Source of the DNA: a virus | Lineage: Duplodnaviria; Heunggongvirae; Uroviricota; Caudoviricetes | Reading direction: 5' to 3' (one strand) | Length of the DNA stretch: 37,524 bases | Virus record (IMG/VR): IMGVR_UViG_2718217884_000001 | Coordinates: 1-37,524 of that record | Part shown: piece after piece, positions 1 to 17,049 of the stretch | Numbering within the stretch: position 1 is the first letter of the stretch | Layout: each line of letters starts with the position of its first letter | Program-made: the position numbers and the translations under genes | Notes under the pieces: model-generated | Told to the model about the DNA's origin: nothing | What the model saw: the letters and a program-made list of their open reading frames with translations, nothing else | Databases searched by the model: none

Positions 1-267
1 ATGAAACGCATGCCCGAAAATGAAACAGGCTTCTGGGCAAGTCTGATAGCCTGGCTGTTCAGCCACAAAACAGAGTGGGGATATGCGGGTGTGGCGGGCA
101 TGTTCTCTCTGCTGCGCAGCGCCTATGCCCAGTCCTCATGGAGTAAACGTATTCTCGACGCCGTATCGTGCAGCGCCCTGGCATTCTTCGCCGCGCCGAC
201 GCTTCAGGTAATTGGTGGCGTACTTAACTGGAATGTCCCTGATGCTGCCGCCCAGGTATTTGCGGTG
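1..267 (+). pseudogene. Lambda S-like (class I) holin, 3' end replaced by IS1
   Basis: ORF 1..348 begins with a dual-start MKxM motif and has hydrophobic segments like lambda S; from nt 268 the frame reads into the IS1 left end (GGTAATGACTCCAACTTA...), so the native C-terminus is missing. Confidence 0.5.
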
Positions 268-282
268 GGTAATGACTCCAAC

Positions 283-786
283 TTACTGATAGTGTTTTAT
301 GTTCAGATAATGCCCGATGACCTTGTCATGCAGCTCCACCGATTTTGAGAACGACAGTGACTTCCGTCCCAGCCTTGCCAGATGTTGTCTCAGATTCAGG
401 TTATGTCGCTCAATGCGCTGAGTGTAACGCTTGCTGATAACGTGCAGCTTTCCCTTCAGGCGTGATTCGTACAGCGGCCAGCCATCCGTCATCCATACCA
501 CGACCTCAAAGGCCGACAGCAGGCTCAGAAGACGCTCCAGTGTGGCCAGAGTGCGTTCACCGAAGACGTGCGCCACAACCGTCCTCCGTATCCTGTCATA
601 CGCGTAAAACAGCCAGCGCTGACGTGATTTAGCACCGACGTAGCCCCACTGTTCGTCCATTTCAGCGCAGACAATCACATCACTGCCCGGTTGTATGCGC
701 GAGGTTACCGACTGCGGCCTGAGTTTTTTAAGTGACGTAAAACCGTGTTGAGGCCAACGCCCATAATGCGTGCACTGGCGCGACAT
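283..786 (-). CDS. insB: IS1 InsB (transposase produced as InsAB' by frameshift)
   Basis: 167-aa translation ...[58 protein letters not shown]... matches IS1 InsB; overlaps the insA 3' end as in IS1. Confidence 0.9.
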
Positions 787-980
787 CCGACGCCATTCAT
801 GGCCATATCAATGATTTTCTGGTGCGTACCGGGCTGAGAGGCGGTGTAAGTGAACTGTAGTTGCCATGTTTTACGGCAATGAGAGCAGAGATAGCGCTGA
901 TGTCCGGCAGTGCTTTTGCCGTTACGCACCACGCCTTCAGTAGCGGAGCAGGAAGGACATCTGATGGAAATGGAAGCCAC
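705..980 (-). CDS. insA: IS1 InsA
   Basis: 91-aa translation [43 protein letters not shown]... matches IS1 InsA as I recall it. Confidence 0.92.
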
Positions 981-1035
981 GCAAGCACCTTAAAATCACC
1001 ATCATACACTAAATCAGTAAGTTGGCAGCATTACC

Positions 1036-2092
1036 GAAATCCTTGCTCATTGAGAGCTGTACTTGCGATAGAACGCAAGCCATGAGAAACGAGAACACCT
1101 CCTAACCCAGCACGCTTGAGTGCTGCATTCACTGTTTGGCTGTTCATTGGCTGGGTTGGTTTGATGCGACTGGGAAAGATAAATTCTCGACCACCACTGA
1201 GGGACTTCATCATTTCCAGAATTGAGATAGCCTCATCCGATAGTGGAACCGTATGGTCTCGGTTCATCTTCATTCGAGCTGCTGGAATTTTCCATTCTTT
1301 AGCATTGAAATCGATCTCATCCCATCGTGCCTCAGCAGCTTCGGCAGGGCGGGTAATGGTGAGAAGCTGCCACATGAACAGACACCGCGTGGACACACTG
1401 ATACTTGCCGTACGCATTGTTTGCATTAACTGTGGAAGTTGATCCGGGCGGATACTTGGCATGTTTTTCTTCTGCGGTTTCTCGAATGCTTTCCCGATAT
1501 TTACACTGGGAACTGCATCAATCAGGCCTGTGTTCTGTGCATAAATCATGACTTCATTAATACGCTGACAAAGGCGGCGAACAGTCTCTAATGCCCCCCT
1601 AGCCTGAACCGGCTGAACTGCTTTAACCAGAGTATGAGCCTTAATCTCAGTGACACTGATATCACCGATTGCTGGAAAAATATCTCTCTCAAGTGAGCGC
1701 CAGATATCGTCAGCATAGTCCTCTGTTACGCTGGCTTTCCTCACATTCCACCAACGCTCAGCAACTAACAAGAAGGTATTAGTTTTGGCCTCTTGAGAAT
1801 TTCTCACCTGTTCTTTCTGATGTTCCTGAGGATCAATGTCTTTCGCCAATAAAACTTTAGATTCGGCTCTGAGTTTACGTGCATCAGAAAGCGAGACGGC
1901 AGGGTAGGCACCGAAGCTCTGTTTGGTTCGCTGCTTGGTCAGAGGCCGATAGTAACGGAATTGCCAGAGCTTACTTCCACTGGATTTGATTAACAGAGTA
2001 AGTCCGTCACCATCATACAACTGGTAATCGGCATCTTTAGGTTTAGCGGCTTTGATTTCCGTATCGGTTAACGGCTTTGTTTTTCTTGCCAT
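1036..2092 (-). pseudogene. intA: CP4-57/P4-type tyrosine integrase (IntA-like), C-terminally truncated by IS1
   Basis: Translation from ATG at 2092 (MARKTKPLTDTEIKAAKPKDADYQLYDGDGLTLLIKSSGSKLWQFRYYRP...) is typical of P4-family integrases; GGAG Shine-Dalgarno 8 nt upstream; ORF ends ...HGLRSIASTALNEQGF at the IS1 boundary, so the catalytic Tyr region is missing. Confidence 0.85.
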
Positions 2093-2214
2093 GGGGAGTC
2101 TCCATGCGTTTAGGCCCAACGAAAACAATAGAGCTTTTCGTTGGGCCTATCAATGGGCCTAAAAGGTTCGGATTTAATTAGTTCTCTTCGGACTTCGCGG
2201 GACAAATTGAAGGC

Positions 2215-2250
2215 ACAAAAAAGCCCGCAGGGCTTGCGCCGTGCGGGCTC
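2215..2250 (-). terminator. Rho-independent terminator (ancestral ssrA terminator, now behind the partial ssrA copy)
   Basis: On minus strand: hairpin GCCCGCA-N12-TGCGGGC (2223..2248) followed by TTTTTTGTG; lies about 45 nt downstream of the partial ssrA 3' end. Confidence 0.6.
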
Positions 2251-2293
2251 TTAGGACTTCATCGGATGACTCTGGTAATCACCGATGGAGAAT

Positions 2294-2340
2294 TTTGGTG
2301 GAGCTGGCGGGAGTTGAACCCGCGTCCGAAATTCCTACAT
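2294..2340 (-). repeat. attL core: 47-bp direct repeat containing the last 45 nt of ssrA
   Basis: TTTGGTGGAGCTGGCGGGAGTTGAACCCGCGTCCGAAATTCCTACAT is identical to 36463..36509 inside the intact ssrA; sequence diverges immediately after CAT. Confidence 0.9.
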
Positions 2341-2457
2341 ACCATTTTTAGCCTAATAAAAACATACATTTACTTTTAAAATCATCACGTTATTGTTTTT
2401 TGTATTTGTCGGGTTTTATGTGATTTTAAGTCTGTGCCGCCAAAGTGCCGCCATAAA

Positions 2458-3483
2458 TTAACGGTTCCAGTTGAGATTGTGAAGCGGGTTTTTTGTCACT
2501 GCATCTTCCAGGTGGTCGGGTGCGAAGTGGGCGTAAATCATTGTCATTTTAATATCGGCGTGGCCCAGAATATCGCGCAGTACCAGTATATTTCCGCCGT
2601 TCATCATAAAATGACTGGCGAAAGTATGGCGCAGAACGTGGGTGCATTGGCCCTCTGGCAAGTCAATGCTTGCCCGCTTGACTGCACGCTCAAAGGCTTT
2701 TCTGCATGGCGTGAATAACTTCCCTCGGTTCTTTGGTAACTCGTCATACAGCGCCTGAGATATAGGAACCGTTCGGTTTTTCTTGCCCTTTGTTTTGGTG
2801 TAGGTGATTCGGTATTTAGATAACTGATGGCCCTGCAGGTTTTCGGCTTCACTCCAGCGGGCGCCGGTAGCTAAGCAGATTTTTGCAATCATGAGCAGGC
2901 TGGGGTTTTCTGAATCAGCGCAGGCATCCAGCAGGCGTTTAATTTCTTCCGGCGCCAGGAACGCCAGTTCCCCCTCTGCGATTTTAAATGTTGGAAGCCC
3001 GGCGAGTGGGTTGGGGGCTGACCAGTGGCCCAGCTTTTTCAGCGTGCCAAAAACTGATGATAGGTTGCGTTGTTCAAGGTTTACCGTGCGGGGCTTAACT
3101 GGCGACATAGGCAAGCCATCTTCATTTTTGACTTCACCTTTTAGGCGTGCTTCACGGTATTTTGTAAAGTCACCGGCAGTCAGCTCCGAGGCAATGGGAT
3201 CACCCAGGCCATTACAAATAATGTTAAGTTTTGCCATCAGGCGCTTGGGGTCAGCAAGAGTCTGTCCGTAAAGTGAATGCCACTGCTTAATTACTTCTGA
3301 CAATTGGCGCCGATCATCCTTTTCGCCTAGCCATGGCTTTTTGTTCACTTCATCCATTGTGAAGTTTTCGAATGCTATGGCCTCGCCTTTCGTCGCAAAT
3401 TGCTTGCGCACGCGCTTGCCATCGCGCCCGCTAGGGTAGCACTCACACAACCATTTCCCGTTTGGCTGTTTTCTGATGGTCAT
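2458..3483 (-). CDS. int: Phage integrase (tyrosine recombinase, P2/186 Int family)
   Basis: 341 aa; C-terminal motifs HVLRHTFAS and MIYAHF (catalytic His/Arg/Tyr region); adjacent to attL; followed by GTGCCGCC direct repeats. Confidence 0.88.
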   Translation of the reverse strand: MTIRKQPNGKWLCECYPSGRDGKRVRKQFATKGEAIAFENFTMDEVNKKPWLGEKDDRRQLSEVIKQWHSLYGQTLADPKRLMAKLNIICNGLGDPIASELTAGDFTKYREARLKGEVKNEDGLPMSPVKPRTVNLEQRNLSSVFGTLKKLGHWSAPNPLAGLPTFKIAEGELAFLAPEEIKRLLDACADSENPSLLMIAKICLATGARWSEAENLQGHQLSKYRITYTKTKGKKNRTVPISQALYDELPKNRGKLFTPCRKAFERAVKRASIDLPEGQCTHVLRHTFASHFMMNGGNILVLRDILGHADIKMTMIYAHFAPDHLEDAVTKNPLHNLNWNR

Positions 3484-3484
3484 A

Positions 3485-4117
3485 TCAAAGGCTCTTAATA
3501 ACTTTTAAGACGTGGCCTACAACCTCGATATCATCCAGGCTGCACTCAAAAGATGATTCATCTTGATGAACTACCAATCTGTTTCCGGGGATACGGGTTA
3601 ACTTCACAATACTTTTTATTCCATCAATATCGACCAACCACACCCCATTTACTGGTGGTGTTTGGCTGCGATCCACTAGGTATGAATCACCACCGGTATT
3701 TACTAAGAGTAAGTTACTGGAATTGGAAGGAAGCAAGCTGCTGTCAATGATTGCTTTACCTGTATCCACCAAAGAGCCGCTAGAAAGTGTCACTTTGTCA
3801 ATTTCGGGAGAAACAAGGTCAGAAAGGTGTTTAACTTTGCCGGAGTTCACGAAATTGATATCTTTTTGCATGTCAATGTTTGAACCCGGCTCGCCTTGCC
3901 CTGTGGTAAGCCAGAGTAAAGAAACGCCTGTCTCAAGAGCGCACTGAATTACCCATTCTGCAGGGAAACTATCTCTTAAGTATCTGTTTGCCATGGTGCT
4001 TTTAGATGCGCCAAGATGGTCGCACAATTGCTGTCTTGATTTGAAATCGTAGGCTGCCATTAGCCTATGGATGGCCTCTCTACCCCCGGTGTTCTCGCCT
4101 GTCTTTACTTGTATCAT
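3485..4117 (-). CDS. cI: CI-like immunity repressor (N-terminal HTH, C-terminal S24-like domain)
   Basis: 210 aa, divergent from apl/cII operon, position between int and the lytic operon as in 186. Confidence 0.7.
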   Translation of the reverse strand: MIQVKTGENTGGREAIHRLMAAYDFKSRQQLCDHLGASKSTMANRYLRDSFPAEWVIQCALETGVSLLWLTTGQGEPGSNIDMQKDINFVNSGKVKHLSDLVSPEIDKVTLSSGSLVDTGKAIIDSSLLPSNSSNLLLVNTGGDSYLVDRSQTPPVNGVWLVDIDGIKSIVKLTRIPGNRLVVHQDESSFECSLDDIEVVGHVLKVIKSL

Positions 4118-4236
4118 TTTTTAATCCTATTGACGTATCAAATATTGGATCGTAGTATCTTTTCGTATCAACTCTTGAATCGTATAAAACAAGATAAAAC
4201 GACGTAAACCAAACCTTAACCGAGAGATACTGCACT
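4118..4236. promoter_or_regulatory. Lysis-lysogeny switch region with divergent promoters and repeated operator-like motifs
   Basis: Between divergent cI (-) and apl-like (+); four spaced copies of a (A)TCGTAT-containing motif (TTGACGTATCA 4129.., TTGGATCGTAGTAT 4145.., TTCGTATCA 4162.., TTGAATCGTATA 4175..); candidate -35/-10 TTGACG-18-TAGTAT. Confidence 0.5.
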
Positions 4237-4485
4237 ATGAGCACTGATATTTCAATTCGTGTACCAAAAGTGATAGCGACGCCAGCCGAGTTTGCTAAGT
4301 GGGAAGGGTATTCCCGTGGTTCTGTTTATCAGATGATTCATAACGGTAAATTGGCTAACTACATTGAAAAGAAAGAAAAAAACAAAGGCCGCGTATTCAT
4401 CCTTTACCTCAAGTACAAAAAAGACCAAGCAAGCAAAAACATGGACAAGTCTGCATTCAATTACAACGTTGTAGTTGGTTGTTAA
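4237..4485 (+). CDS. Apl/Cox-like excisionase and transcriptional regulator
   Basis: 82-aa basic protein, first gene of the rightward operon opposite cI, position as 186 apl / P2 cox. Confidence 0.5.
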   Translation: MSTDISIRVPKVIATPAEFAKWEGYSRGSVYQMIHNGKLANYIEKKEKNKGRVFILYLKYKKDQASKNMDKSAFNYNVVVGC

Positions 4486-4517
4486 GTTCAATTATGTGAA
4501 CTTTTGAGGTATGAAAC

Positions 4518-5027
4518 ATGTTTGATTATAAGATTTCCAAACATCCGCATTTTGATGAAGCCTGCCGGGCTTTCTCGCTGCGTCACAACATGGCGAAGCT
4601 GGCAGAACGCGCAGGAATGAATGTCCAGACGCTGCGCAACAAGCTGAACCCGGAGCAACCGCATCAACTTACCCCGCCGGAGATCTGGCTGCTGACTGAT
4701 ATCACAGAAGACTCAACGCTGGTTGACGGTTTTCTGGCTCAAATCCATTGCCTGCCGTGCGTGCCATTGAATGAAGTGGCAAAAGAGAAGCTGCCGCATT
4801 ACGTCATGAGAGCTACTGCTGAAATCGGACGTGTTGCTGCCGGTGCCGTATCGGGTGATGTGAAAACCACCGCAGGCCGCCGCGATGTTATCAGCAGCAT
4901 TAACTCTGTTACTCGTCTGATGGCACTGGCTGCCGTTTCGATGCAGGCGCGTTTACAGGCTAACCCGGCGATGGCAAGCGCGGTGGATACCGTGACGGGC
5001 CTCGGCGCTTCGTTTGGTCTGATCTGA
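4518..5027 (+). CDS. cII: 186 CII-like lysogeny establishment activator
   Basis: 169 aa; MFDYKISKHPHFDEACRAFSLRHNMAKLAERAGMNVQTLRNKLNPEQPH... resembles phage 186 CII; GAGGT RBS. Confidence 0.75.
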   Translation: MFDYKISKHPHFDEACRAFSLRHNMAKLAERAGMNVQTLRNKLNPEQPHQLTPPEIWLLTDITEDSTLVDGFLAQIHCLPCVPLNEVAKEKLPHYVMRATAEIGRVAAGAVSGDVKTTAGRRDVISSINSVTRLMALAAVSMQARLQANPAMASAVDTVTGLGASFGLI

Positions 5028-5034
5028 GGTGGTT

Positions 5035-5235
5035 ATGCTGACTAAAGAACCCTCTTTTGCGTCACTTCTCATAAAGCAAAGCCCGGCAATGCACTACGGT
5101 CACGGCTGGATCATGGGGAAGGATGGCAAACGCTGGCACCCGTGCCGCTCTCAGGATGAACTGCTGGCTGACCTGTCCACAACCAAACAGGGGAAATCAT
5201 GGCTATTGAAGGCGCTGCAGCGACTGTCCCATTAA
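5035..5235 (+). CDS. Small early protein (Fil-like by position)
   Basis: ATG at 5035 preceded by GAGGTGG; ORF track lists 5029 (GTG); follows cII as fil does in 186. Confidence 0.4.
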   Translation: MLTKEPSFASLLIKQSPAMHYGHGWIMGKDGKRWHPCRSQDELLADLSTTKQGKSWLLKALQRLSH

Positions 5236-5540
5236 GCCCCGGTAAAAGGCTGGACGCATTGAATCATATTGCGGAATTGAGAGCTAAAGTGTTTGGCCTG
5301 AATATTGAGCCGGAGCTTGAAAGGTTTATTAAAGATATGCGCGATCCACGCGACGTAAATAATAAACAGAATGAGCGGGCACTGGCAGCCATTTTTTATA
5401 TGGCAAAAATTCCGGCAGAACGTCACGGCGTCAATATTAGTGATCTGACTACTGACGAAAAGCGGGAACTGGTGAAAGCAATGAATCATTTTCGTGCAGT
5501 GGTGAGCTTATTTCCCAAACGGCTAACCATGCCGAATTAA
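5199..5540 (+). CDS. Hypothetical early-operon protein
   Basis: 113-aa ORF in the early operon, overlaps previous stop; no family recognised. Confidence 0.5.
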   Translation: MAIEGAAATVPLSPGKRLDALNHIAELRAKVFGLNIEPELERFIKDMRDPRDVNNKQNERALAAIFYMAKIPAERHGVNISDLTTDEKRELVKAMNHFRAVVSLFPKRLTMPN

Positions 5541-5607
5541 TCCACAACAGAAATTAATGGCGTAAACCCGCCGGGCTTCTTATTGCCCAAATTCAGGAGA
5601 AACAACT

Positions 5608-5841
5608 ATGCGAAATATTGAAACCCGTACCACTAAAACCGGACCAGATGATGCTGGTCTCAACCTGTTGCTGACTGAGGCACGCAAAGAAGAACGCCGG
5701 GGACGCGCAGATGTGATGGCTGCGCGTCTGGATTCTTTAGCTGCTCGTATCGTGTCACGTCAGCTTAACCACACGGAAGCGGCTGAGCTGCTGCGTCAGG
5801 AAGCTGTGAAGATTCAGAACGAAGCGCAGGAGATCCACTGA
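5608..5841 (+). CDS. Hypothetical early-operon protein
   Basis: 77-aa ORF with AGGAG RBS; stop overlaps next start. Confidence 0.5.
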   Translation: MRNIETRTTKTGPDDAGLNLLLTEARKEERRGRADVMAARLDSLAARIVSRQLNHTEAAELLRQEAVKIQNEAQEIH

Positions 5842-6068
5842 TGGCTGATTCAATGGACCTTGTACAGCAGCGCGTTGAAGAAGAACGCCCGCGCCATATC
5901 CACACCGCCCGCAATAAAACGCCGGGCGTTTCCCGTGTTCTCTGCATTGATTGCGATGCGCCGATCCCGCCAGCTCGCCGCCGCGCCATTCCGGGCGTGC
6001 AGTGCTGCGTCACTTGTCAGGAAATCGCAGAGCTGAAAGGCAAACACTACAACGGGGGTGCTGTATGA
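5841..6068 (+). CDS. TraR/DksA-type C4 zinc-finger protein
   Basis: 75 aa with CIDC...N17...CVTC four-Cys motif; common upstream of gene A in P2-like phages. Confidence 0.65.
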   Translation: MADSMDLVQQRVEEERPRHIHTARNKTPGVSRVLCIDCDAPIPPARRRAIPGVQCCVTCQEIAELKGKHYNGGAV

Positions 6069-6925
6069 GCACTATTCTGAAATGGGCGGGAAATAAAACC
6101 TCCATCATGCCGGAACTGATTAAGCATCTTCCTGCTGGCACGCGACTGGTTGAACCTTTCGCGGGTTCATGCGCTGTAATGATGGCGACAGACTATCCTC
6201 ATTATCTTGTCGCGGATATTAACCCAGACCTGATAAATCTTTTTAAGCATATTGCATTTGACTGCGAGAAATTTATTTCAAATTCAAAAGGATTCTTTTC
6301 AGGCACAAATAGCGCTGAGTCTTATTACAACATCCGTCAGGATTTTAATCATTCGGCTGAAACCACCGATTTCTGGAAAGCTGTATTTTTCCTTTATCTT
6401 AATCGCCATGGTTATCGTGGGTTGTGCCGCTATAATTTGAGCGGTCATTTTAATGTCCCTTACGGTAATTATAAAAATCCGTATTTTCCTGAAAGTGAAA
6501 TACGCGCTTTTGCAGAAAAGGCTCAACGCGCAACGTTTATCTGTGCCAGCTATGACGAAACACTGGCGCTGCTGCAGGCTGGTGATGTTGTTTATTGTGA
6601 TCCGCCATACGATGGCACATTTAGCGGTTATCACACTGCCGGTTTTACAGAAGACGATCAGTATCATCTGGCGTCTATTCTTGAGCGCCGGTCATCAGAA
6701 GGTCATCCGGTTATCGTGTCCAACAGCGACACGTCCCTGACCCGTTCGCTTTATCGTAATTTTACCCGCCATCGCATCACTGCAAAGCGCAGCATGGGTG
6801 TGGCTGCCGGCGAGAGTAAATCTGCAGCAGAAATCATCGCCACAAAATCAGCTGGCTGGTTTGGTGTCGATTTGGCGTCCGGTCCAGATATCTCGGTGGA
6901 AACTGAGGTGCGGGCGTGGCAGTGA
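6065..6925 (+). CDS. dam: DNA adenine methyltransferase (Dam family, N6-A MTase)
   Basis: [23 protein letters not shown]...FAGSCAVMM (AdoMet motif) and DPPY catalytic motif; ATGA overlap with upstream gene. Confidence 0.85.
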
Positions 6926-9324
6926 GTAAATTCACATTACATAATGCACCAACCACCGGCGGCTCGAATGAGGCCGCCGTGGCCTTTTCATGGAATAACC
7001 CCAAAAAAGCGGTTAACCCATATCTGGACCCGGCGGAAGTTGCGCCGGGGTCTGCGCTTTCAAACCTGATTGCTCTTTACGCTGCGGATAACGAGCAGGA
7101 GCAGCTGCGCCGTGAGGCGCTGAGCGATGAGGTCTGGGAACGCTATTTCTTCAATGAATCCCGTGATCCTGTCCAGCGCGAAATGGAGCAGGACCGGCTG
7201 ATTAGTCGTGCCAAAATGGCGCGCGAGCAGCAGCGTTTTAATCCCGATCTGGTCATTCTGGCTGACGTTAACGCCATGCCGTCCCATATCAGCAAGCCTC
7301 TGCTGGAGCGGATTAAATATTTCCATAGCCTGGGCAGAGCAAAAGCCTATTCCCGCTACCTGCGCGAAACAATTAGGCCCTGTCTTGAGCGGCTGGAGCG
7401 CGTGCGTGACAGTCAGGTGTCTGCCTCTTTCCGGTTCATGGCAAGTCATGACGGGCTGGAGGGGCTGCTGGTACTGCCTGAAATGAATCAGGATCAGGTC
7501 AAGCGTCTTTCCACGCTGGTTGCGGCTCATATGAGCATGTGTCTTGATGCGGCCTGCGGTGATCTGTTTGTCAGCGACGATGTTAAACCAGAAGAAATCC
7601 GCCAGGCATGGGAAAGGGTTGCAGCAGAGGCGATGCGCCTTGAGATCATCCCGCCTGCGTTTGAGCAGTTACGCCGCAAAAAGCGTCGACGCAAGCCGGT
7701 GCCCTATGAACTGATCCCACCGTCGCTGGCGCGGATGCTGTGCGCGGACTGGTGGTATCGCAAATTGTGGCAGATGCGCTGCGAGTGGCGGGAGGAACAG
7801 CTGCGTGCTGTCTGCCTGGTCAACAAAAAAGCGTCCCCGTATGTCAGCTATGAAGCCGTGATCCACAAGCGCGAGCAGCGCCGCAAATCGCTGGAGTTCT
7901 TCCGCTCACATGAGCTGGTCAACGAAGACGGTGACACGCTGGACATGGAAGACGTGGTGAACGCCAGTAACAGCAACCCGGCACACCGCCGTAATGAAAT
8001 GATGGCCTGTGTTAAGGGACTGGAGCTGATAGCGGAAATGCGCGGAGACTGCGCAGTGTTCTATACCATCACCTGCCCGTCACGCTTCCACGCAACCCTC
8101 AACAACGGCAGACCTAATCCGAAGTGGACCAGTGCCACAGTCCGGCAGAGCAGTGACTATCTGGTTGATACGTTCGCCGCTTTCCGCAAGGCAATGCACA
8201 AGGCCGGGCTGCGCTGGTATGGCGTCCGCGTTGCGGAGCCGCACCATGACGGCACAGTGCACTGGCATCTGTTGTGCTTCATGCGCAAAAAAGACCGCCG
8301 TTTCATCACTGCGATGCTGCGCAAGTTTGCCATCCGTGAAGACCGCGAGGAGCTGGGCACCAACACCGGGCCGCGCTTCAAATCCGAGCTAATCAACCCG
8401 CGCAAGGGCACGCCGACCAGCTACATCGCCAAATACATCAGCAAGAACATCGACGGGCGTGGGCTGGCTAAAGAAATCAGCAAAGAAACCGGCAGATCGC
8501 TGCGTGACAGTGCCGAGCATGTCAGCGCCTGGGCGTCACTGCACCGTGTCCAGCAATTTCGTTTCTTTGGTATTCCAGGGCGTCAGGCATACCGCGAGCT
8601 GCGCTTGCTGGCTGGTCAGGTGGCGAGAGTGCAGGGCGAACGCAAAGCGGGTGCGCCGGTACTGGATAATCCGCGTCTGGATGCGGTACTGGCGGCGGCT
8701 GATGCGGGCTGCTTTGCCACCTACATCATGAAGCAGGGCGGCGTGCTGGTTCCCCGCAAACATCACCTTGTCCGCACGGCTTATGAGCTTAACGACGAAC
8801 CGAGCGCCTACGGCGATCACGGTATCCGTATCTATGGCATCTGGTCCCCGATTGCAGAGGGCAAGATTTGCACGCACGCGGTGAAGTGGAAAAAGGTTCG
8901 TAAGGCCGTTGATGTTCAGGAGGCGGCAGCCGACCAGGGCGCTTGCGCCCCTTGGACTCGTGGCAATAACTGTCCCCCTGTTGAAAATCTGAACAAATCA
9001 GGGGGGGATTTACCCGATATTAAAACTATGGATGAGAGGGAGCTGCAGGAATATCTCCACAACATGGGCCAGAAGGAACGGCGGGAGCTGACAGCCAGGT
9101 TAAGGCTGGTAAAACCGAAGCGGAAAAAAGCATATAAACAGACTATTTCGGATCAGCAGCGCCTGCAGCTTGAGGCAGAACTGAGTTCCAGAGGGTTCGA
9201 TGGTAGCGAGTCAGAGATTGACCTGCTTCTGCGCGGCGGCAGTATTCCGTCAGGTGCCGGGCTGCGTATTTTTTACCGCAACCACCGTCTGCAGGAAGAT
9301 GACAAATGGCGTCAGTGGTACTGA
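6916..9324 (+). CDS. A: Replication initiation endonuclease (P2 gpA family, rolling circle)
   Basis: 802 aa, GTG start overlapping dam stop; contains conserved segment around HxH and tyrosine-containing YIAKYISK characteristic of gpA. Confidence 0.88.
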
Positions 9325-9420
9325 TGCCGCAGCTTTAACAATTCTTGCTCTTATTGATCCGCATCAGAGCGATCTAATTGACAGATAAAAAACGGTTTAC
9401 ATTCGCAAATTCCTACTATA

Positions 9421-9436
9421 CTGTAATTATAAACAG
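9421..9436 (+). promoter_or_regulatory. LexA (SOS) box overlapping promoter -10
   Basis: CTGTAATTATAAACAG is a perfect CTGT-N8-ACAG; -35 TTTACA (9396..9401) and -10 TATACT (9417..9422); a second degenerate half-box at 9437..9452. Confidence 0.7.
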
Positions 9437-9485
9437 TGGATATATATACAGTTGTTGTATATCCGAGGTGGTGATAGGAGGGAAA

Positions 9486-9674
9486 ATGCAGGATTATCTT
9501 TTGGAGTCGTTGAAGCTCCAGCGCATTGATTTTTTTATCAAGCTTGTAGCGGCTAGTGAGTGTAGCGACGAAGAAAAGCGGCTGGCTATCCAGTGGGTGT
9601 CCGAACTGACCGACGAGCTGATGGCGAAAATCCGCAGCCATGAATACTGCCGGTCAATGGATGTAACCAGTTAA
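9486..9674 (+). CDS. Small SOS-controlled protein (candidate antirepressor, Tum-position)
   Basis: 62 aa from ATG 9486 with GGAGGG RBS; directly downstream of LexA box; the longer 9378 start would precede the promoter. Confidence 0.5.
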   Translation: MQDYLLESLKLQRIDFFIKLVAASECSDEEKRLAIQWVSELTDELMAKIRSHEYCRSMDVTS

Positions 9675-9685
9675 GGGGAATCTGT

Positions 9686-9919
9686 ATGCGCATTGAAATA
9701 ATGATCGATAAAGAGCAGAAGATTAGCCAGGCTACACTGGACGCCCTTGAATCCGAGCTTTACCGTAATTTGCGCCCTCTGTATCCCAAAACAGCAATTC
9801 GTATCCGTAAGGGCAGCGCCAACGGCGTTGAGCTGAGCGGGTTAAAACTGGATGAAGATAAAAAGCGAGTGATGGAAATAATGCAGCAGGTCTGGGAGGA
9901 CGACAGCTGGTTACATTAG
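9686..9919 (+). CDS. DinI-family protein
   Basis: 77 aa; MRIEIMIDKEQKISQATLDALESELYRNLRPLYP...EIMQQVWEDDSWL aligns with DinI by eye. Confidence 0.75.
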   Translation: MRIEIMIDKEQKISQATLDALESELYRNLRPLYPKTAIRIRKGSANGVELSGLKLDEDKKRVMEIMQQVWEDDSWLH

Positions 9920-10052
9920 CGAACGTTGCGGACGATAAAACTGGTTTTTACCGTCCGCAAGGTTGAACAACGAGCCACGCGAGGCGTTAGCGCTGTTGTG
10001 CATGTCTATGCCGCATGAAATCGCATGATCGTTTGAGGATCGTTTTTGCTCA

Positions 10053-10078
10053 GGCCCGCCAGAACTGGCGGGCTTTTG
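10053..10078 (+). terminator. Rho-independent terminator after SOS operon
   Basis: GCCCGCCAG-AACT-GGCGGGC hairpin followed by TTTTGCTT. Confidence 0.55.
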
Positions 10079-10122
10079 CTTATGTCATGCAGGTGCATGA
10101 AAACCACTACACAAAGCGGGCA

Positions 10123-10141
10123 GGCGTGGCGGGGATACGAG
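10123..10141. other. Candidate cos (cohesive end) site
   Basis: GGCGTGGCGGGGATACGAG; first 13 nt identical to my recollection of the 186 cohesive end GGCGTGGCGGGGAAAGCAT; position near Q 3' end. Confidence 0.35.
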
Positions 10142-10240
10142 CGCGCGCTGGTTGGTTTGGGACAGCTTTCAAGAGCTATGTCTCATTTTTGCTTGGACGG
10201 ATAGATTACTCTACTCAAAACATGTGAAATGGAGATAAAC

Positions 10241-10423
10241 ATGCCGTATCAAGTTAAAGCTTATTGTCCTTGTTGTGGGGTCGCTGCAAGTGGTGATCTG
10301 AACAAAATTGAAGAGGTATTTGGTTTTAGAATGATGGAAGGGGAACGTTTGATTCCACAATCATATTGTCGCAGATGTCGTCGATTAAGATGTTCTCCAA
10401 ATGATAAAAAGTGCGGAGCATAA
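10241..10423 (+). CDS. Cys-rich zinc-ribbon protein, unknown function
   Basis: 60 aa from ATG 10241 (GGAG 6 nt upstream); CPCCG...CRRCRRLRC; AT-rich codons; 3-nt gap to next gene. Confidence 0.55.
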   Translation: MPYQVKAYCPCCGVAASGDLNKIEEVFGFRMMEGERLIPQSYCRRCRRLRCSPNDKKCGA

Positions 10424-10426
10424 AAG

Positions 10427-10696
10427 ATGGCGGTCTATTGTGTAACGTATGACTTGAAAGCTCCAGGCAAGAACTATGATGATGTTTTTACCTATCTCAA
10501 AAAGTTTGACTACTGCAAACATTTAGAATCCTTTTGGTTAATCGATACCACGCTTTCTGCAGCGCAATTGCGTGATGGACTTAAAGCAAATGTTGATAGT
10601 AACGATGTGATCTTTGTTGCTCGTTTACAAAAATCTTGGGCCTCATTAAATTATTCTTGTTCTACATGGTTAAAGGCTCCTGGTCGAAATTGGTAA
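10427..10696 (+). CDS. 89-aa protein of unknown function, co-operonic with zinc-ribbon ORF
   Basis: GGAG RBS; N-terminal beta-strand-like VYCVTYDL; AT-rich; followed by terminator hairpin. Confidence 0.55.
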   Translation: MAVYCVTYDLKAPGKNYDDVFTYLKKFDYCKHLESFWLIDTTLSAAQLRDGLKANVDSNDVIFVARLQKSWASLNYSCSTWLKAPGRNW

Positions 10697-10703
10697 ATAA
10701 ATT

Positions 10704-10730
10704 AAGGCCGCATGATTAGCGGCCTGTTTG
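10704..10730. terminator. Bidirectional terminator hairpin between small cassette and Q
   Basis: GGCCGC-ATGATTA-GCGGCC with T-rich tracts on both strands. Confidence 0.5.
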
Positions 10731-10758
10731 AATATTGTTGTTGATGAGTAGGTGATTA

Positions 10759-11805
10759 CTATTCATCACCTAAATTTAACTTGTAGGGTTCAAAGCGTAT
10801 TACATCTTCTTGTAACCAATCATTGAGTTCTTGCAGCCTTTTTTGGAGGGGGATTAGTTCGTTTCTTACAAAAACAAGGCTGGCCTTTTCCACATCCCCA
10901 AAACCCCCAACATTGCTTGGCATGATCCCCATCATCTGTGGCGGCACACGGTGCGCTGCCATCATGTCATCGCGGCTCACGTTCTTGATGTTCAGAAACT
11001 CATCCTTTGCTGCTACCTCTGATAGTGGGATTATCTGAATGCCGTCCTTCTTCCCGTTGGGCGAATACATAAACAGGTTGCGGAAGTTGCCTGGCCCTTT
11101 GGCGCTTTTCATGGCCTGGCGGATGTTGTTCACGTCCTCCTGGTTCTGCGCGGCGTCGGTCATGTACATGATAAAGCCCGCGTGGCTGCCGTTGATGTAG
11201 TACTTGCGGCGGAACAGCGTGGCGGACTCATTCAGAAGGGCGGAAGGGATAGCGGACAGGTATTCTGGTAGTCCATAAATCTCCTGGTTTAAGTCCGGCT
11301 CCATCAGGTGGAAGATGCTGCCTTTGGTGAACTCGTAGGGCTGCGTGGTCATGCCGTATTGCACAAACCAGTAAGTGTCGAGGTCGGTCCCGCGGCGGGT
11401 GTATTTCGCCAGCGATGGCTCCAGTGACAGAATGCCGCCCAGCCGGTTCGTCCGTTTCTCCAGATAGGCATTACCAAACACCAGGTAGTCCTGCACGAAG
11501 CGGCTGAATGCCTGCTGGCTCAGCAGCGGATGCGGGATAAACGTGCTGGTCAGGATGTTGCGCTTAACGGCAATCGGTGAGCTGTGATGCACGGCGGCGC
11601 GGTAGGTGCGAGCCAGGCCGTCAAAGCTCACGGGCGGCTCATACCATTTGTCCATCTGCACGCATTCCACATAGTCCAGCAGTTCGCGGCGGTCCAGTAC
11701 CGGGATAGGATCGCCAAAGCTGAATGCTTCGGCTTGAGTTGTGTTCTTCTGCTGCGCGGCTTCCTGTACTGGCGCGGTACTGGTCAGGGCGTCGTGTTCA
11801 CTCAT
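10759..11805 (-). CDS. Q: Portal protein (P2 gpQ)
   Basis: 348 aa; position and size match P2 Q; start overlaps P stop. Confidence 0.88.
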   Translation of the reverse strand: MSEHDALTSTAPVQEAAQQKNTTQAEAFSFGDPIPVLDRRELLDYVECVQMDKWYEPPVSFDGLARTYRAAVHHSSPIAVKRNILTSTFIPHPLLSQQAFSRFVQDYLVFGNAYLEKRTNRLGGILSLEPSLAKYTRRGTDLDTYWFVQYGMTTQPYEFTKGSIFHLMEPDLNQEIYGLPEYLSAIPSALLNESATLFRRKYYINGSHAGFIMYMTDAAQNQEDVNNIRQAMKSAKGPGNFRNLFMYSPNGKKDGIQIIPLSEVAAKDEFLNIKNVSRDDMMAAHRVPPQMMGIMPSNVGGFGDVEKASLVFVRNELIPLQKRLQELNDWLQEDVIRFEPYKLNLGDE

Positions 11806-13571
11806 TAAAAAATCTCCACAATATTGCTGGTATTGGCGGATTCGCCCTGCAGCGGTTCGTTAAACAGTGCGTGCATCGTTGCCCAGGCCAAATCTGCGTG
11901 GCTGGCTTCTTCGCTGCGGCTCGCTTCGTAGGTAGGGCGGTTGCCGCTGGCGGTAGTGGCACGGCGGATTGCCATAAAGGACTGCGCAATGTCAGTGTGC
12001 CCGGCGTCAAACTCCAGACGACGGTGGCTGATAATGTCGTACGCTTTGAGCACCAGGGCGTTTTTGACGTTGGGGTTGTAGACAAACTCCCGCACGGCAG
12101 GAAAGAACGCTTTTACGTTCTCATAAACACCGTGACCGACGCCGGTCGAGTCGATGCCGATATAAGTCACGTTGTACTGCTGCGTCAGCTTTTTGATGGC
12201 ATCAGCCTGGGCGCGGAAGTCCATCCCGCGCCACTGATGACGCTCCAGAATGCGGAACTTTCCGCCAGGTACAGTGGGTGGTGCCATAACCACGCAGCCT
12301 GCGCTGTCACCGTTCTGCGTACCTTTCGCTGGGTCGTAACCGATCCAGACTTCCCGCCAGCCAAACGGGCGCAGCGCCAGCGCCTGAAAATCGGTCCAGA
12401 CTTCCCAGCTGTCCACCATGCACGCCTGCAGCTCGCTGAGCGGGAATACTGACGCCAGATCGTCAATAAATTCGCACATCAGCAGGTTCTGGTATTCGTC
12501 CGGGCTGTACTCCATGCGCAGTTGGTCCAGGTCGAACAGGTTACAGCCTCCGCGCACCGCATCCTCCACGGTGACGATCTGGCGGTACTGTCCGTCAGGG
12601 CAGAGCAGGCCGCGCGCAAGGTTGCTGTGGGTCAGGTCAATATCCACCTTGTCCGCTTTGGCGCGGCCCCGATTAAACAGCGCACCGGACCAGAACGGAT
12701 AGGCACTGTGAGTCAGGCTGGACGGCGTGGAAAAGTAGGTTTGTCGCCATTTTTTGTGAATGGCCATCCCGGAGGCCACCTTGCGCAGCTCCTGGAATTT
12801 CGGTATCCAGAAATACTCATCAAGATACAGGTTGCCGTGGTAGCTCTGCGCAGTACGGGCATTGGTGCCGAGGAAGTACAAAGCTGCGCCATTGGGCAGC
12901 ACCATGGGATCGCCTTTCAGCTCAACATCCACCTCTTTGGCAAAGTCGATGATGTACTGCTTAAAAACGTGCGCCTGCGCCTTACTGGCAGAAAGGAAAA
13001 TCTGGTTGCGCCCGGTCAGCAGGGCGTCAATCAATGCTTCACGGGCAAAATAAAACGTGGCGCCAATCTGGCGCGACTTGAGCAGATTACGGATGCGGTT
13101 TGTTTTTCCGGCTTCAAACCAGTGACGCTGATAGTCGAACATTGAGGCATGGAAGACTTCTTCCAGCTTTTCGATCTGTTCGTCGGAGAAAACGTTCTTT
13201 TCCGGCTGCCTGCGCGGACCTTTGTTACGGTTGTCTACTTTCGGGTTTAAATCTGCTTCGTTCCCGCCGTCGTTAAATTTTCCGATCCGGGCGTGACGCT
13301 CTGACTGGCGCGCCAGCAGGTCAATTTCCTTGAAGTCTTTCCCTTCTTTCTGCTCCTTCATGATGAGCTGGCAGTAACGTGCGGCGGTGGTGAGCTGCAT
13401 CTGATCCAGCGGCCCATAGTCGCCCCACTTGTCGCGCTTCTTCCAGCTGTGAACGGTTGCAACTTTTTCGCCCAGCATTTCAGCAATGCGGGCTACGCGG
13501 TATCCCTGAAAGTACAGCAGCATGGCCTGCCGACGGGGATCGAGGTCTGCGGGGGTCAGTGTCGTGTTCAT
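11805..13571 (-). CDS. P: Terminase large (ATPase) subunit (P2 gpP)
   Basis: 588 aa; upstream of Q on same strand as in P2. Confidence 0.88.
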   Translation of the reverse strand: MNTTLTPADLDPRRQAMLLYFQGYRVARIAEMLGEKVATVHSWKKRDKWGDYGPLDQMQLTTAARYCQLIMKEQKEGKDFKEIDLLARQSERHARIGKFNDGGNEADLNPKVDNRNKGPRRQPEKNVFSDEQIEKLEEVFHASMFDYQRHWFEAGKTNRIRNLLKSRQIGATFYFAREALIDALLTGRNQIFLSASKAQAHVFKQYIIDFAKEVDVELKGDPMVLPNGAALYFLGTNARTAQSYHGNLYLDEYFWIPKFQELRKVASGMAIHKKWRQTYFSTPSSLTHSAYPFWSGALFNRGRAKADKVDIDLTHSNLARGLLCPDGQYRQIVTVEDAVRGGCNLFDLDQLRMEYSPDEYQNLLMCEFIDDLASVFPLSELQACMVDSWEVWTDFQALALRPFGWREVWIGYDPAKGTQNGDSAGCVVMAPPTVPGGKFRILERHQWRGMDFRAQADAIKKLTQQYNVTYIGIDSTGVGHGVYENVKAFFPAVREFVYNPNVKNALVLKAYDIISHRRLEFDAGHTDIAQSFMAIRRATTASGNRPTYEASRSEEASHADLAWATMHALFNEPLQGESANTSNIVEIF

Positions 13572-13617
13572 GGCCCAAACATACGGCCTTGGATGGCGGC
13601 TTTCCCCGGCTGCAGTT

Positions 13618-13635
13618 TGTGTGGTTTACCGTACA
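13618..13635. promoter_or_regulatory. Candidate Ogr-dependent late promoter element (TGT-N12-ACA) in P/O divergent region
   Basis: TGTGTGGTTTACCGTACA; centre about 55 bp upstream of a plausible O-operon start and of the P start. Confidence 0.45.
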
Positions 13636-13713
13636 AATACAGCGCGTTGTCTCACTCCCCCCATCACCGCAAACATAAGGCTCCAGTAAGTTATTTCTAA
13701 CGGAGCACGGCTC

Positions 13714-14547
13714 ATGACAGTGAAAGCAAAACGTTTCCGTATCGGGGTGGAAGGCGCCACTACCGACGGACGCGAAATCCAGCGTGAATGGCTGGTACAG
13801 ATGGCTGCCAGCTACAATCCGACGGTCTATACCGCGCTGATCAACATGGAACACATCAAGTCTTATTCCCCGGACAGTGCATTCAACCGTTACGGCAAAG
13901 TGACTGCGCTGGTTGCAGAAGAAATCCAGGACGGTCCGCTGGCGGGCAAGATGGCACTTTACGCCGATGTTGAACCGACGGACTCCCTGGTGGCCCTAGT
14001 GAAAAAAGGCCAGAAGCTGTTTACCTCCATGGAGGTCAGCCCGAAGTTTGCCGACACCGGCAAAGCCTATCTTGTGGGGCTGGCGGCAACAGACGATCCG
14101 GCGAGTCTCGGCACCGAAATGCTGGTATTCAGCGCCAGCGCCGCCCATAACCCGCTGGCAAACCGTAAGCAGAACCCTGAAAACCTGTTTACCGCTGCCG
14201 AAGAAACGCAGATCGAACTGGAAGAAGCCCAGGACGAAAAGCCATCCCTCTTTGCCCGCGTCACCGCGCTGTTCACCAAAAAAGAGCAGACCGACGATGC
14301 GCGATTCTCTGATGTGCATAAAGCCGTGGAACTGGTCGCCACCGAGCAGCAGAACCTGAGCGAACGCACTGATAAATCCCTGTCAGAACAGGACAAGCGC
14401 CTTTCTGAGCTGGAGTCCTCCCTGCAGGAACAACAGGCCGCCTTTGCCGAGTTACAGCAGCAGCTGAGCCGTGAAGACAGCCGCAAGGATTACCGCCAGC
14501 GCGCGCCGGGCGGTGACGCACTGGCAGGCACCCTGACCAATTGCTGA
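13714..14547 (+). CDS. O: Capsid scaffolding protein (P2 gpO)
   Basis: 277 aa, acidic coiled-coil C-terminal half; first gene of rightward late operon. Confidence 0.85.
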   Translation: MTVKAKRFRIGVEGATTDGREIQREWLVQMAASYNPTVYTALINMEHIKSYSPDSAFNRYGKVTALVAEEIQDGPLAGKMALYADVEPTDSLVALVKKGQKLFTSMEVSPKFADTGKAYLVGLAATDDPASLGTEMLVFSASAAHNPLANRKQNPENLFTAAEETQIELEEAQDEKPSLFARVTALFTKKEQTDDARFSDVHKAVELVATEQQNLSERTDKSLSEQDKRLSELESSLQEQQAAFAELQQQLSREDSRKDYRQRAPGGDALAGTLTNC

Positions 14548-14563
14548 TGGAGCATAAAACCCG

Positions 14564-15631: not shown

Positions 15632-15634
15632 CGC

Positions 15635-17046: not shown

Positions 17047-17049
17047 ATT

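Follow-up and report, generated by a model that had tools for sequence, protein, structure and literature searches.

Integrated elements arrayed in tandem at the tmRNA gene were reportedly described by Williams in 2003 in J Bacteriol under the title "Traffic at the tmRNA gene", and SopEPhi is said to have been located in ssrA by Pelludat et al., also in 2003. Fels-2 and SopEPhi both integrate in ssrA (PMC3448106), and tandem integrated elements at the tmRNA gene have been described for the ssrA islands of Dehalococcoides (PMC3146451). The elements using this site differ in the trace they leave in the gene: P2-type elements leave CGCCAGCTCCACCA intact, whereas most P4-type elements, including CP4-57, leave deletions (PMC10107115, Table 1), and excision of CP4-57 from the E. 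coli K-12 chromosome deletes T357 of ssrA (PMC10107115).

The locus analysed here lies on a stretch of 37,524 nt (IMG/VR record IMGVR_UViG_2718217884_000001), referred to below as the window. It resembles Fels-2 and SopEPhi, phages of Salmonella belonging to Felsduovirus (Peduoviridae), in its gene order from int, cI, apl and cII to ogr, in using the ssrA 3' end as att core and in leaving the tmRNA 3' end intact (PMC10107115, Table 1; PMC3448106), but it differs from them in its E. coli host, its AriA/AriB cargo, another tail-fibre/invertase region and an IS186 copy in gene H, and its prophage adjoins the stub of a P4-type integrase instead of native chromosome. With CP4-57 of K-12, which extends from intA to ypjF, the window shares IntA, the 203-nt trailer with its terminator and their position relative to the ssrA 3' end, whereas it retains only 352 codons of intA and lacks alpA, the cargo and the distal att site, containing IS1 and a holin fragment instead. 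As in the known tandem arrays at tmRNA genes, the elements have the same orientation, a copy of the gene's 3' end precedes each of them and the older element has decayed in place; we see no difference in kind from these arrays, only an unusually small distal remnant. The arrangement is a clear and ordinary case of serial integration at a well-known hotspot and represents an already known kind. The features are listed in Table 1, in which the boundaries of the prophage are fixed to the base.

Table 1. Features of the window, with the evidence for each assignment
Feature	Position	Strand	Evidence or remarks
Holin 5' fragment, 89 codons, lambda-S-type	1..267	plus	Pfam Phage_holin_3_1, E = 8.8e-10, profile 2-67 of 99
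IS1, complete, 768 bp	268..1035	minus	insA and insB' ORFs match NCBIfam transpos_IS1
intA', codons 1-352 of a 413-codon CP4-57-type (P4-family) ssrA-specific integrase	1036..2092	minus	Pfam, NCBIfam, K-12 alignment
Trailer of the earlier P4-type island	2093..2293	minus	comparison with K-12 and 1008S19
Displaced ssrA 3'-end copy (45 nt of the gene + 2 nt)	2294..2340	minus	exact repeat
Prophage, Fels-2/SopEPhi-type, P2-like	2341..36462 (plus one 47-nt core)		megablast, attP reconstruction
Phage att arm, int side	2341..2457		two TGCCGCCA motifs at 2435 and 2446
Integrase, full-length tyrosine recombinase	2458..3483	minus	Pfam Int_N + Phage_integrase; C-terminal ...LGHADIKMTMIYAH... motif present
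CI repressor, 186/Fels-2-type	3485..4117	minus	Pfam Phage_CI_repr + Phage_CI_C
Apl/Cox-like excisionase	4237..4485	plus	PHROG 6912 (excisionase, E = 2.9e-34) and PHROG 575 (Cox-like)
IS186/IS421 (IS4 family, ~1.34 kb) in tail-fibre gene H	25205..26541	minus	comparison with L3Cip3
ogr, late-gene activator, last gene at the ssrA-proximal end	36129..36347	plus	NCBIfam PRK09678; L3Cip3 annotation
Phage att arm, ogr side	36378..36462	minus	two TGCCGCCA motifs (36379, 36409) and hairpin terminator ~36420..36456
Proximal att core, 47 nt, forming the 3' end of functional ssrA	36463..36509	minus	exact repeat and attP comparison
ssrA (tmRNA), intact	36465..36827	minus	ARAGORN and Rfam; tag ANDENYALAA
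smpB, conserved chromosomal neighbour of ssrA	37042..37524	minus	ORF; 100% identity to the regions annotated as smpB in 1008S19 and K-12

The ssrA gene gave a full-length match to the Rfam tmRNA model (295.8 bits, model positions 1-374 of 374) and is identical to that of K-12 over all 363 nt. Exactly two copies of its terminal 45-nt string, TGGTGGAGCTGGCGGGAGTTGAACCCGCGTCCGAAATTCCTACAT, are present in the window (2296..2340 and 36465..36509); a chance origin of this repeat was ruled out, as no match appeared in 100 shuffles. An earlier note, made from the letters of the window alone, had placed the gene and the repeat of its last 45 nt at these positions, and ARAGORN, Rfam and the exact string match all agree with it; its coordinates were throughout correct to within a few bases. 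The identity of the two copies, on which its reading depended, extends over 47 nt, 2 nt past the CCA end, and the sequences flanking this block are unrelated between the copies on both sides. Rfam scored only the full tmRNA and returned no separate match for the 45-nt fragment, as expected. The displaced copy represents the prophage att site distal to ssrA, on the int side, and holds a whole P4-type core of about 15 nt. Read along the gene strand, the order is smpB, ssrA, the prophage from ogr to int, the 45-nt fragment, the trailer and intA'; two integrase-bearing elements thus lie in one orientation with a 3'-end copy before each, the proximal one supplying the 3' end of the gene.

By megablast, the prophage belongs to the Fels-2/SopEPhi group, in agreement with the earlier description of the inserted element as P2-like and with the documented occurrence of this group at ssrA (PMC3448106; PMC10107115). 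It is 89–91% identical to Fels-2, SopEPhi, SEN8 and MLG42 over 76–78% of the query; for Fels-2 and SopEPhi, the identity is 89–90% over about 77% of the first 24.7 kb. A prophage at ssrA of E. coli L3Cip3 is 99.9–99.95% identical to it, and in that strain the native ypjA flank comes after the displaced ssrA fragment. The annotation of L3Cip3 gives the order portal, terminase, scaffold, capsid, lysis, baseplate, tail fibre, sheath, tube, tape measure, D and ogr; the late and structural genes accordingly have the canonical P2-type order, int and ogr occupy the two ends of the prophage, and the lysogeny module is of the 186 type, comprising CI, Apl/Cox and a CII-like protein that was also detected with PHROG. 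The exact Int protein of the prophage was found in 499 blocks of a public collection. The cargo includes a PARIS-like AriA/AriB pair, and PADLOC had no match for the invertase and just a marginal one for an 89-aa ORF at 10427. The insertion in gene H, which is missing from the L3Cip3 prophage, has 25-nt inverted ends, matches the NCBIfam IS4 transposase family, is labelled IS421 in the matching RefSeq element and is flanked by the target duplication GGGAAACAGCCC (25193..25204 and 26542..26553). This damage to the prophage itself refines the reading of the earlier note. Because IS186 splits gene H, infectious particles are improbable, and the intact int and apl/cox genes together with both cores argue for excision competence; the prophage is therefore probably able to excise and unable to form infectious particles.

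The attP obtained by joining the ends of the prophage corresponds collinearly to a single uninterrupted segment in the free phage genomes of SEN8 and MLG42. In the records of SopEPhi and RE2010, the match runs exactly to the end of the 47-nt core, which is the last base of each record, and the Fels-2 record ends inside the core, where it is annotated as part of attP. The attP core thus equals the ssrA 3' end, which is regenerated on integration, and a phage hairpin terminator lies right beside this copy. The TGCCGCCA motifs in the int-side arm are candidate arm-type binding sites of Int and are invariant among the window, SEN8 and MLG42. The phage hairpin on the ogr side (~36420..36456, minus strand) has 12 pairs followed by a U run (z = −6.3) and is a predicted terminator which would now end the transcription of ssrA. 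The proposal of the earlier note that the phage supplies the sequence downstream of ssrA, including a new hairpin at about 36421..36458, is upheld by this hairpin and by the intact attP in SEN8 and MLG42. In K-12, the distal copy of CP4-57 reads TGGTGG-GCTGGCGG, which shows that the 47-nt core encloses the P4-type core. The crossover point and the choice of phage-derived bases are a matter of inference only, because the two 47-nt copies do not differ at any base; the 3' end of the functional ssrA would, at least in part, come from the phage attP.

On the far side of the prophage, the integrase remnant shows the Pfam domains Arm-DNA-bind_3, Phage_int_M and Phage_integrase and matches NCBIfam PRK09692 with 778 bits (cut-off 434) over positions 1-352 of 413. 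It shares 97% of its 352 retained residues and 93.8% of its DNA with K-12 intA, including the trailer, and is by sequence the orthologue of K-12 IntA. The alignment stops at residue 352 of 413, so that neither the second conserved histidine nor the catalytic tyrosine (...LAHVDKNEVRRAY...) is present; the segment PPDVIEAALAHVDKNEVRRAYNRSDY... is absent, the Pfam Phage_integrase profile is covered over positions 3-144 of 172 only, and the catalytic domain is thus incomplete. Because these two residues are gone, the stub is predicted to be dead and fixed in place: it is a catalytically dead protein that should neither excise nor integrate. From its start at 2092 (minus strand) to the ssrA fragment there are 203 nt, the same distance as in K-12 MG1655 (intA start at 2557 and ssrA end at 2761 of the K-12 locus L001). 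The trailer differs at 3 of 203 nt from K-12 and at none from 1008S19, and contains a small hairpin (~2261..2286), an intrinsic terminator (~2217..2252) and, at 2153..2125, a site resembling a promoter for intA. In this terminator, the G+C-rich hairpin of the minus strand leads into a U run (−37.9 kcal/mol for a 96-nt fold, z = −5.9). An integrase directly 3' of an ssrA 3' end, with an island trailer and terminator, is thus present, and what follows it is not the island body (alpA and cargo) with a distal att copy, but IS1 and a foreign holin fragment. Neither the window nor 43 kb of the related 1008S19 locus contained a third copy of the P4-type core. As neither an island body nor a distal att remains, we dropped the label "CP4-57-like prophage in tandem" in favour of "integrase stub".

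Aligning the window to ssrA-intA of K-12, as the earlier note had suggested, recovered the same spacer and terminator. Its spacing of about 205 bp, its rho-independent terminator at 2215..2250 on the minus strand and its assignment of the left integrase to the CP4-57/P4 type are all confirmed. Two of its statements needed refinement. The "CP4-57-type integrase remnant" was correctly identified, and can be specified as a dead stub of 352 codons from an island whose other genes and distal att are missing; the "original" ssrA terminator has indeed been displaced, but it came with the earlier P4-type island and was not that of the ancestral chromosome.

The loss of the intA end can be traced by comparison with E. 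coli 1008S19, in which the holin-IS1 junction is identical, intA has its full length and ssrA lies directly beside it. Positions 1..1036 of the window correspond to 3778..4813 of the 1008S19 locus (L004), and 1036..2340 to 5001..6305; because these segments are not contiguous in 1008S19 (4813 vs. 5001), 188 bp are missing from the window. The deletion begins exactly at the end of IS1 and cuts intA at codon 352 of 413, removing the last 61 codons. Apart from this deletion and the prophage, the two loci differ by one substitution in intA' (position 1740). The IS1 copy has its terminal inverted repeats at 268..290 and 1013..1035, is 100% identical to that of 1008S19, which is annotated as an IS1 family transposase, and has two different flanks, GCGGTG and GAAATCC, with no target duplication. 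Adjacent deletion is a classical behaviour of IS1, known since the work on the gal region in the 1970s, and the junction found here, with its endpoint at the IS1 terminus, the IS kept and the target not duplicated, corresponds to the standard outcome. The holin fragment fused to IS1, 100% identical at this junction to 1008S19, stems from an unrelated lambdoid remnant and marks the far side of the IS1-mediated rearrangement.

Among genomes that encode precisely this IntA' product (353 aa), with an identical intA'-IS1 junction in the 8 contigs examined, four different states were seen upstream of the stub: an empty one with ssrA directly beside it and no phage (L010/L027 and L012/L029), a P4-like satellite whose fragment is 15 nt long or of the deltaT form, a lambdoid prophage (one genome) and the Fels-2-like phage of the window. 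In the collection, 76 blocks carry this junction, and the phage-free sister genomes include GCA_045607865.1. Because these sister genomes share the junction but differ upstream of it, the stub most likely predates the phage, with repeated re-occupation of ssrA afterwards, and the phage-free genomes bear out the claim of the earlier note that a CP4-57-like element was already present when the phage arrived. In two other E. coli loci (L018 and L023), the 45-nt fragment and other P4-type integrases come after this same phage Int; a related phage adjoins a full intA in APEC-O117H42, and the phage is the sole occupant in most of the other genomes read. The phage-type junction occurred in 59 genomes, intA beside ssrA in 677 and both in 2, counts which give no usable estimate of co-occurrence, as they come from phylogenetically non-independent strains and also miss tandem cases with other P4-type integrases. 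No further case of this phage together with this stub appeared in 5,426 complete E. coli genomes, in the other contigs read or in a set with one genome per species; the exact IS1-intA' junction had no match in the latter set, which includes a single E. coli and is therefore uninformative on this point. The integrase families at ssrA use nested cores of about 15, 27–33 and 45–47 nt.

Serial site-specific integration at the tmRNA gene very probably explains the locus. As comparison with K-12 suggests, a CP4-57-type island with a P4-family integrase would have entered the last ~15 nt of ssrA, carrying its own trailer, terminator and intA. As comparison with E. coli 1008S19 and N9 shows, IS1-mediated rearrangements then reduced the island to intA, joined to the unrelated lambdoid fragment, and the further IS1-adjacent 188-bp deletion took the last 61 codons including that of the catalytic tyrosine. 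Afterwards, a Fels-2/SopEPhi-type phage would have integrated via its own Int, its 47-bp attP core recombining with the identical last 45 nt (+2) of ssrA; the anatomy of this step is visible in the window, and its chemistry is deduced from the knowledge of tyrosine recombinases. The old 3' end with trailer, terminator and intA' would thereby have been shifted by 34.1 kb to the int end of the prophage, and ssrA stays intact and terminated because attP carries a replacement 3' end and its own intrinsic terminator. Finally, IS186 split the tail-fibre gene. This order of events is drawn from genome comparison rather than from a dated phylogeny, with precise phage loss from the "empty" relatives as an unlikely alternative.

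With identical core copies, the opposite order, in which the phage arrived first, the P4-type island then entered the displaced 45-nt fragment and IS1 eroded it last, would end in the same sequence, and the displaced fragment does hold the complete ~15-nt P4-type core. We nevertheless give it only a slim chance: the irreversible intA'-IS1 junction exists beside ssrA in the phage-free genomes, the other elements filling the same slot would each require precise phage loss and a new acquisition, and the occurrence of the phage as sole occupant elsewhere shows that it is independent of the island.

Two further explanations concern how the prophage came to stand beside the stub. An import of the prophage-bearing ssrA region by homologous recombination (transduction or conjugation), without Int-mediated integration in this lineage, could have drawn on available donors, since 99.9% identical prophages reside at ssrA of unrelated E. 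coli such as L3Cip3. However, the flanks match 1008S19 right up to the core (1,062 nt at 100% on the ssrA-smpB side and 1,305 nt at 99.92% on the intA' side), no foreign flanking DNA is visible, with the trailer free of mismatches to 1008S19, and no donor with an intA trailer beside the phage was found, which leaves this route very improbable indeed. The chance that an assembler merely joined a phage contig to the chromosome via the shared 47-nt repeat is close to negligible: assemblers may be led astray by repeats, and none of the other genomes searched had exactly this combination, but 47 nt is shorter than ordinary reads, the junctions occur independently in complete genomes (both phage junctions in L3Cip3, ssrA-intA in 1008S19), and Fels-2-type lysogens have exactly this orientation and this int-to-ogr order with respect to ssrA.

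Serial integration, as preferred here, explains why 34 kb separate ssrA from a second copy of its 3' end and from a fragment of an integrase gene, and intA' should be annotated as a pseudogene. It seems hardly likely that the displaced material is anything other than inert, either through effects of IntA' on binding or excision or through the trailer swap changing the tmRNA. IntA', which has kept its arm- and core-binding domains and lost the nucleophile, could bind the P4-type core nested in both att sites of the prophage and modulate prophage excision, and it could have an influence on how P4-like satellites, which fill the slot in some sister genomes, gain entry. Its intact reading frame is uninformative in this respect because the truncation is recent, with one substitution relative to 1008S19 in the retained sequence. 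Replacing the two-hairpin P4-type trailer by the single-hairpin phage trailer may possibly alter the 3' maturation of pre-tmRNA or the tmRNA level.

The fixed intA'-IS1 landmark makes the sister genomes comparable and reveals that the slot beside it was filled independently by a P2-like phage, P4-like satellites and a lambdoid phage, each occupant using a nested core of its own length. Because the two att cores are identical, excision by Int and the Apl/Cox-like protein should rebuild ssrA without a scar, as for P2-type elements, in contrast to P4-type excision, which leaves a one-base deletion. The tmRNA-inactivating excision of CP4-57 observed in K-12 would be impossible in this strain, because the stub is incapable of excision.

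The window contains a single tmRNA gene, ssrA, which was detected by ARAGORN as well as by the full Rfam model RF00023 (295.8 bits) and is identical to ssrA of E. coli K-12 over 363 of 363 nt. The intact ssrA described in the earlier note is thereby confirmed, as is its claim that the end of the gene is repeated far to the left: the last 45 nt recur exactly in a distal copy (0 of 100 shuffles matched), no difference between the copies was found, and pairwise alignment extended the identity to a 47-nt block, the core, with unrelated flanks on both sides. The terminators proposed downstream of either copy were also recovered, each as a hairpin with a U run. The distal one lies within a 96-nt fold (z = −5.9), and the one close to ssrA consists of 12 pairs (z = −6.3).

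Features of the ssrA locus and the adjoining elements (positions in the window)
Feature	Position	Strand	Description
Holin fragment	1..267		beyond IS1; 89 codons from the start of a lambda-S-type holin gene
IS1	268..1035		complete, 768 bp
intA'	1036..2092	minus	352 residues; Arm-DNA-bind_3, Phage_int_M and Phage_integrase, the P4-family architecture
Distal hairpin and U run	~2217..2252	minus	
Small hairpin	2261..2286	minus	in the intA trailer
Distal core	2294..2340		47 nt
Copy of the ssrA end	2296..2340		last 45 nt
Prophage	2341..36462		
Putative PARIS-like cargo	19582..21685	minus	two genes
IS186/IS421 with duplications	25193..26553		~1.34 kb, IS4 family, in tail-fibre gene H; absent from the 99.95% identical L3Cip3 prophage
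ssrA-proximal hairpin and U run	~36420..36456	minus	
ssrA-proximal core	36463..36509		47 nt
ssrA	36465..36827	minus	
smpB	37042..37524		just upstream of ssrA

Beyond the distal copy, the reading frame of intA' starts at a distance of 203 nt, which is exactly the ssrA-intA spacing of K-12 MG1655, put at about 205 bp in the earlier note. The product IntA' matches NCBIfam PRK09692 with 778 bits (profile positions 1–352 of 413) and is 97% identical to IntA of K-12, so its assignment to the P4/CP4-57 type withstood the database search. The suggested alignment to ssrA-intA of K-12 gave 93.8% identity without gaps over 1036..2340, with 3 differing positions in the 203-nt trailer. The reading frame stops where IS1 starts, and because the 61 missing residues include the second conserved histidine and the catalytic tyrosine (...LAHVDKNEVRRAY...), the product is unable to recombine DNA. 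Neither a CP4-57 gene other than intA' nor a third copy of the P4-type core was found in the window. The left element thus shows the sequence features of an IntA-type integrase, but because it lacks both a complete catalytic domain and an island body, it represents a remnant, which cannot excise itself. The small hairpin in its trailer has counterparts in two contigs (L018 and L023) carrying the Int of the window prophage followed by other P4-type integrases. In all three elements, these hairpins of unrelated sequence lie 10–15 nt after the CCA end of ssrA and precede a well-conserved terminator, while the Fels-2-type trailer contains the terminator only.

The loss of the intA end could be traced by comparison with E. 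coli 1008S19, which shares the holin-IS1 junction with 100% identity (as does strain N9). In both strains intA is full-length and directly adjoined by ssrA; a gap of 3 nt separates its stop codon from IS1. Relative to 1008S19 and N9, the window shows a 188-bp deletion whose first base lies exactly at the IS1 terminus (1031..1036; positions 4813..5001 of the 1008S19 sequence L004); over the sequence shared with 1008S19, the only further differences are the 34-kb prophage and one substitution in intA' (1740). No flanking target duplication was present at IS1 in the window or in 1008S19. Such a pattern is the classical signature of an IS1-mediated rearrangement followed by an IS1-adjacent deletion, the latter having removed the catalytic tyrosine of IntA.

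The element between the cores is P2-like, as had been proposed, being 89–91% identical to Fels-2, SopEPhi, SEN8 and the Yersinia phage MLG42 over 76–78% of its first 24.7 kb. Except for the tail-fibre/invertase region, it shares 99.9% identity with the prophage that occupies ssrA in E. coli L3Cip3, whose annotation comprises the full P2-type set of int, cI, cII, dam, A, head, lysis and tail genes, D and ogr; in the window itself, direct matches were obtained for CI, CII and an Apl/Cox-like excisionase. The features that define a Fels-2-type prophage are present at the locus, as are those that define a tandem array. Among the accessory prophage genes, 5951..6925 codes for an orphan methyltransferase of the Dam type (PADLOC oMTase, E = 4e-105) and 9686..9919 for a homologue of DinI; 10427..10696, located in the interval from gene A to the portal gene, codes for an 89-aa protein (PHROG 1090). 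Two cargo genes between baseplate gene V and a virion morphogenesis gene match the PADLOC models for AriA (E = 2e-36) and AriB (E = 9e-23), and we regard them as a predicted PARIS-like system for anti-phage defence, placed in a P2-type hotspot. A comparable pair (AAA_15/AAA_21 and DUF4435) is the cargo of a P4-like satellite in another contig, L033.

Compared to L3Cip3, the window contains an extra 1,337 bp at 25205..26541 with 25-nt inverted ends, an IS4-family transposase and a 12-bp duplication, GGGAAACAGCCC (G3-N6-C3 target); the matching element is annotated in RefSeq as IS421, equivalent to IS186. It splits gene H into a 349-codon 5' and a 172-codon 3' reading frame. While the excision functions look intact from their sequences, infectious particles are unlikely, which makes this prophage a probably non-infectious one. 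In the regions 25204..28481 and 28557..29150, the C-terminal and assembly genes of the tail fibre, located beside a DNA invertase (PHROG 125), differ from those of L3Cip3, and the block 27018..27813 matches L3Cip3 in inverted orientation (87%), which suggests an invertible host-range segment in the other orientation or allele.

To reconstruct attP in silico, 36262..36462, the core and 2341..2540 were joined. The product aligns collinearly, as one piece, to the genome of the free Salmonella phage SEN8 (448/448 nt covered, 89%), and the same holds for MLG42. The matches to the SopEPhi and RE2010 records end at the final base of the core, which is the final base of each record; the Fels-2 record stops inside the core and is annotated with the statement that the two ends join to form attP. 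The window prophage, SEN8 and MLG42 have in common the core, four TGCCGCCA motifs and, apart from one or two substitutions, the neighbouring hairpin terminator, indicating that the phage brings a spare ssrA 3' end and its own terminator and, as claimed earlier, supplies the sequence now downstream of ssrA. The four motifs, invariant in both free phages, lie on the same strand at 2435, 2446, 36379 and 36409, two per arm and within ~120 nt of the core; TGCCGCCA occurs 11 times in the window versus 3 expected by chance. They are plausible candidates for arm-type sites of the Fels-2-type Int.

While this anatomy is read directly from the locus, we infer the recombination steps from what is established about tyrosine recombinases in general. 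In this view, Int of the phage would have catalysed recombination between the 47-bp core of attP and the ssrA 3' end, which is identical to it, leaving an ssrA with a bacterial 5' part and a phage-derived 3' end and terminator beyond the crossover; since the core copies are identical, the point of crossover and the assignment of particular core bases to the phage are deduced. The former ssrA 3' end would have passed, together with the trailer, terminator and intA' of the earlier island, to the int-side att site, and the old terminator and integrase indeed lie at the int end of the prophage, displaced from ssrA as proposed. Because both copies are identical, phage excision should restore ssrA scarlessly, which fits the entry for Fels-2 in Table 1 of PMC10107115; by contrast, excision of CP4-57 deletes T357 and inactivates tmRNA (PMC10107115). 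The distal copy of CP4-57 in K-12 reads TGGTGG-GCTGGCGG, so the P4-type core comprises the last ~15 nt only and is nested inside the phage core. Nothing at this locus is new in kind: integration at ssrA is documented for both Fels-2 and SopEPhi (PMC3448106), CP4-57 of K-12 serves as the model of a P4-type island in this position (PMC10107115), tandem ssrA arrays with nested 'sublocations' per integrase family are credited to Williams 2003 (as cited in PMC10107115, PMC3146451), and such arrays occur at ssrA of Dehalococcoides (PMC3146451).

The exact 353-residue IntA' product was present in 76 blocks of the public collection, and its junction with IS1 was identical in 8 of 8 contigs inspected. 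ssrA is directly adjacent to the stub in GCA_045607865.1 and a metagenome contig. Other contigs with this junction contain P4-like satellites with varied cargos (L030–L033, L035, L036) or a lambdoid prophage (L034) before the stub. The complete satellites encode a P4-type Int (399 aa), Psu, Delta, AlpA, Ash and primase; that of L031 starts right after the ssrA 3' end (L031 157..201 and 9784). They end just before the intA trailer in a 15-nt fragment or a one-base-deleted CCGCCAGC-CCACCA, and int of the lambdoid prophage adjoins a ~27–33-nt ssrA fragment; three integrase families with nested cores have thus made use of a single slot within one lineage. All these upstream states share the 188-bp deletion, which is irreversible. 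The simplest history is that the dead stub came first and that different elements, the window phage among them, later entered the slot independently of one another, which gives a comparative basis to the earlier proposal that the phage entered a chromosome already carrying a CP4-57-like element. The exact phage Int occurred in 499 blocks; most contexts read had the native ypjA flank after the ssrA fragment, and in two the 45-nt fragment preceded P4-type integrases other than IntA, to which they are 47% and 61% identical. Together with a related phage adjoining full-length intA in APEC-O117H42, these contexts indicate that stacking of both element types at ssrA is recurrent. Neither the 5,426 complete E. 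coli genomes searched nor the contigs read contained the exact combination of phage and stub, as expected for a highly variable hotspot.

In 1008S19, the entire ssrA island is an 8-kb patch between two IS1 copies, which abuts glaH/csiD and contains lambdoid phage fragments and a flagellin gene. The holin fragment of the window is part of this patch in related genomes (35440..40652 of their sequence L005), where the genes between ssrA and glaH/csiD include a helicase fragment, a toprim primase, an antiterminator, TnpB and a flagellin gene of the FliC/FljB family. This extra flagellin gene within an eroded ssrA island may bear on H-antigen variation.
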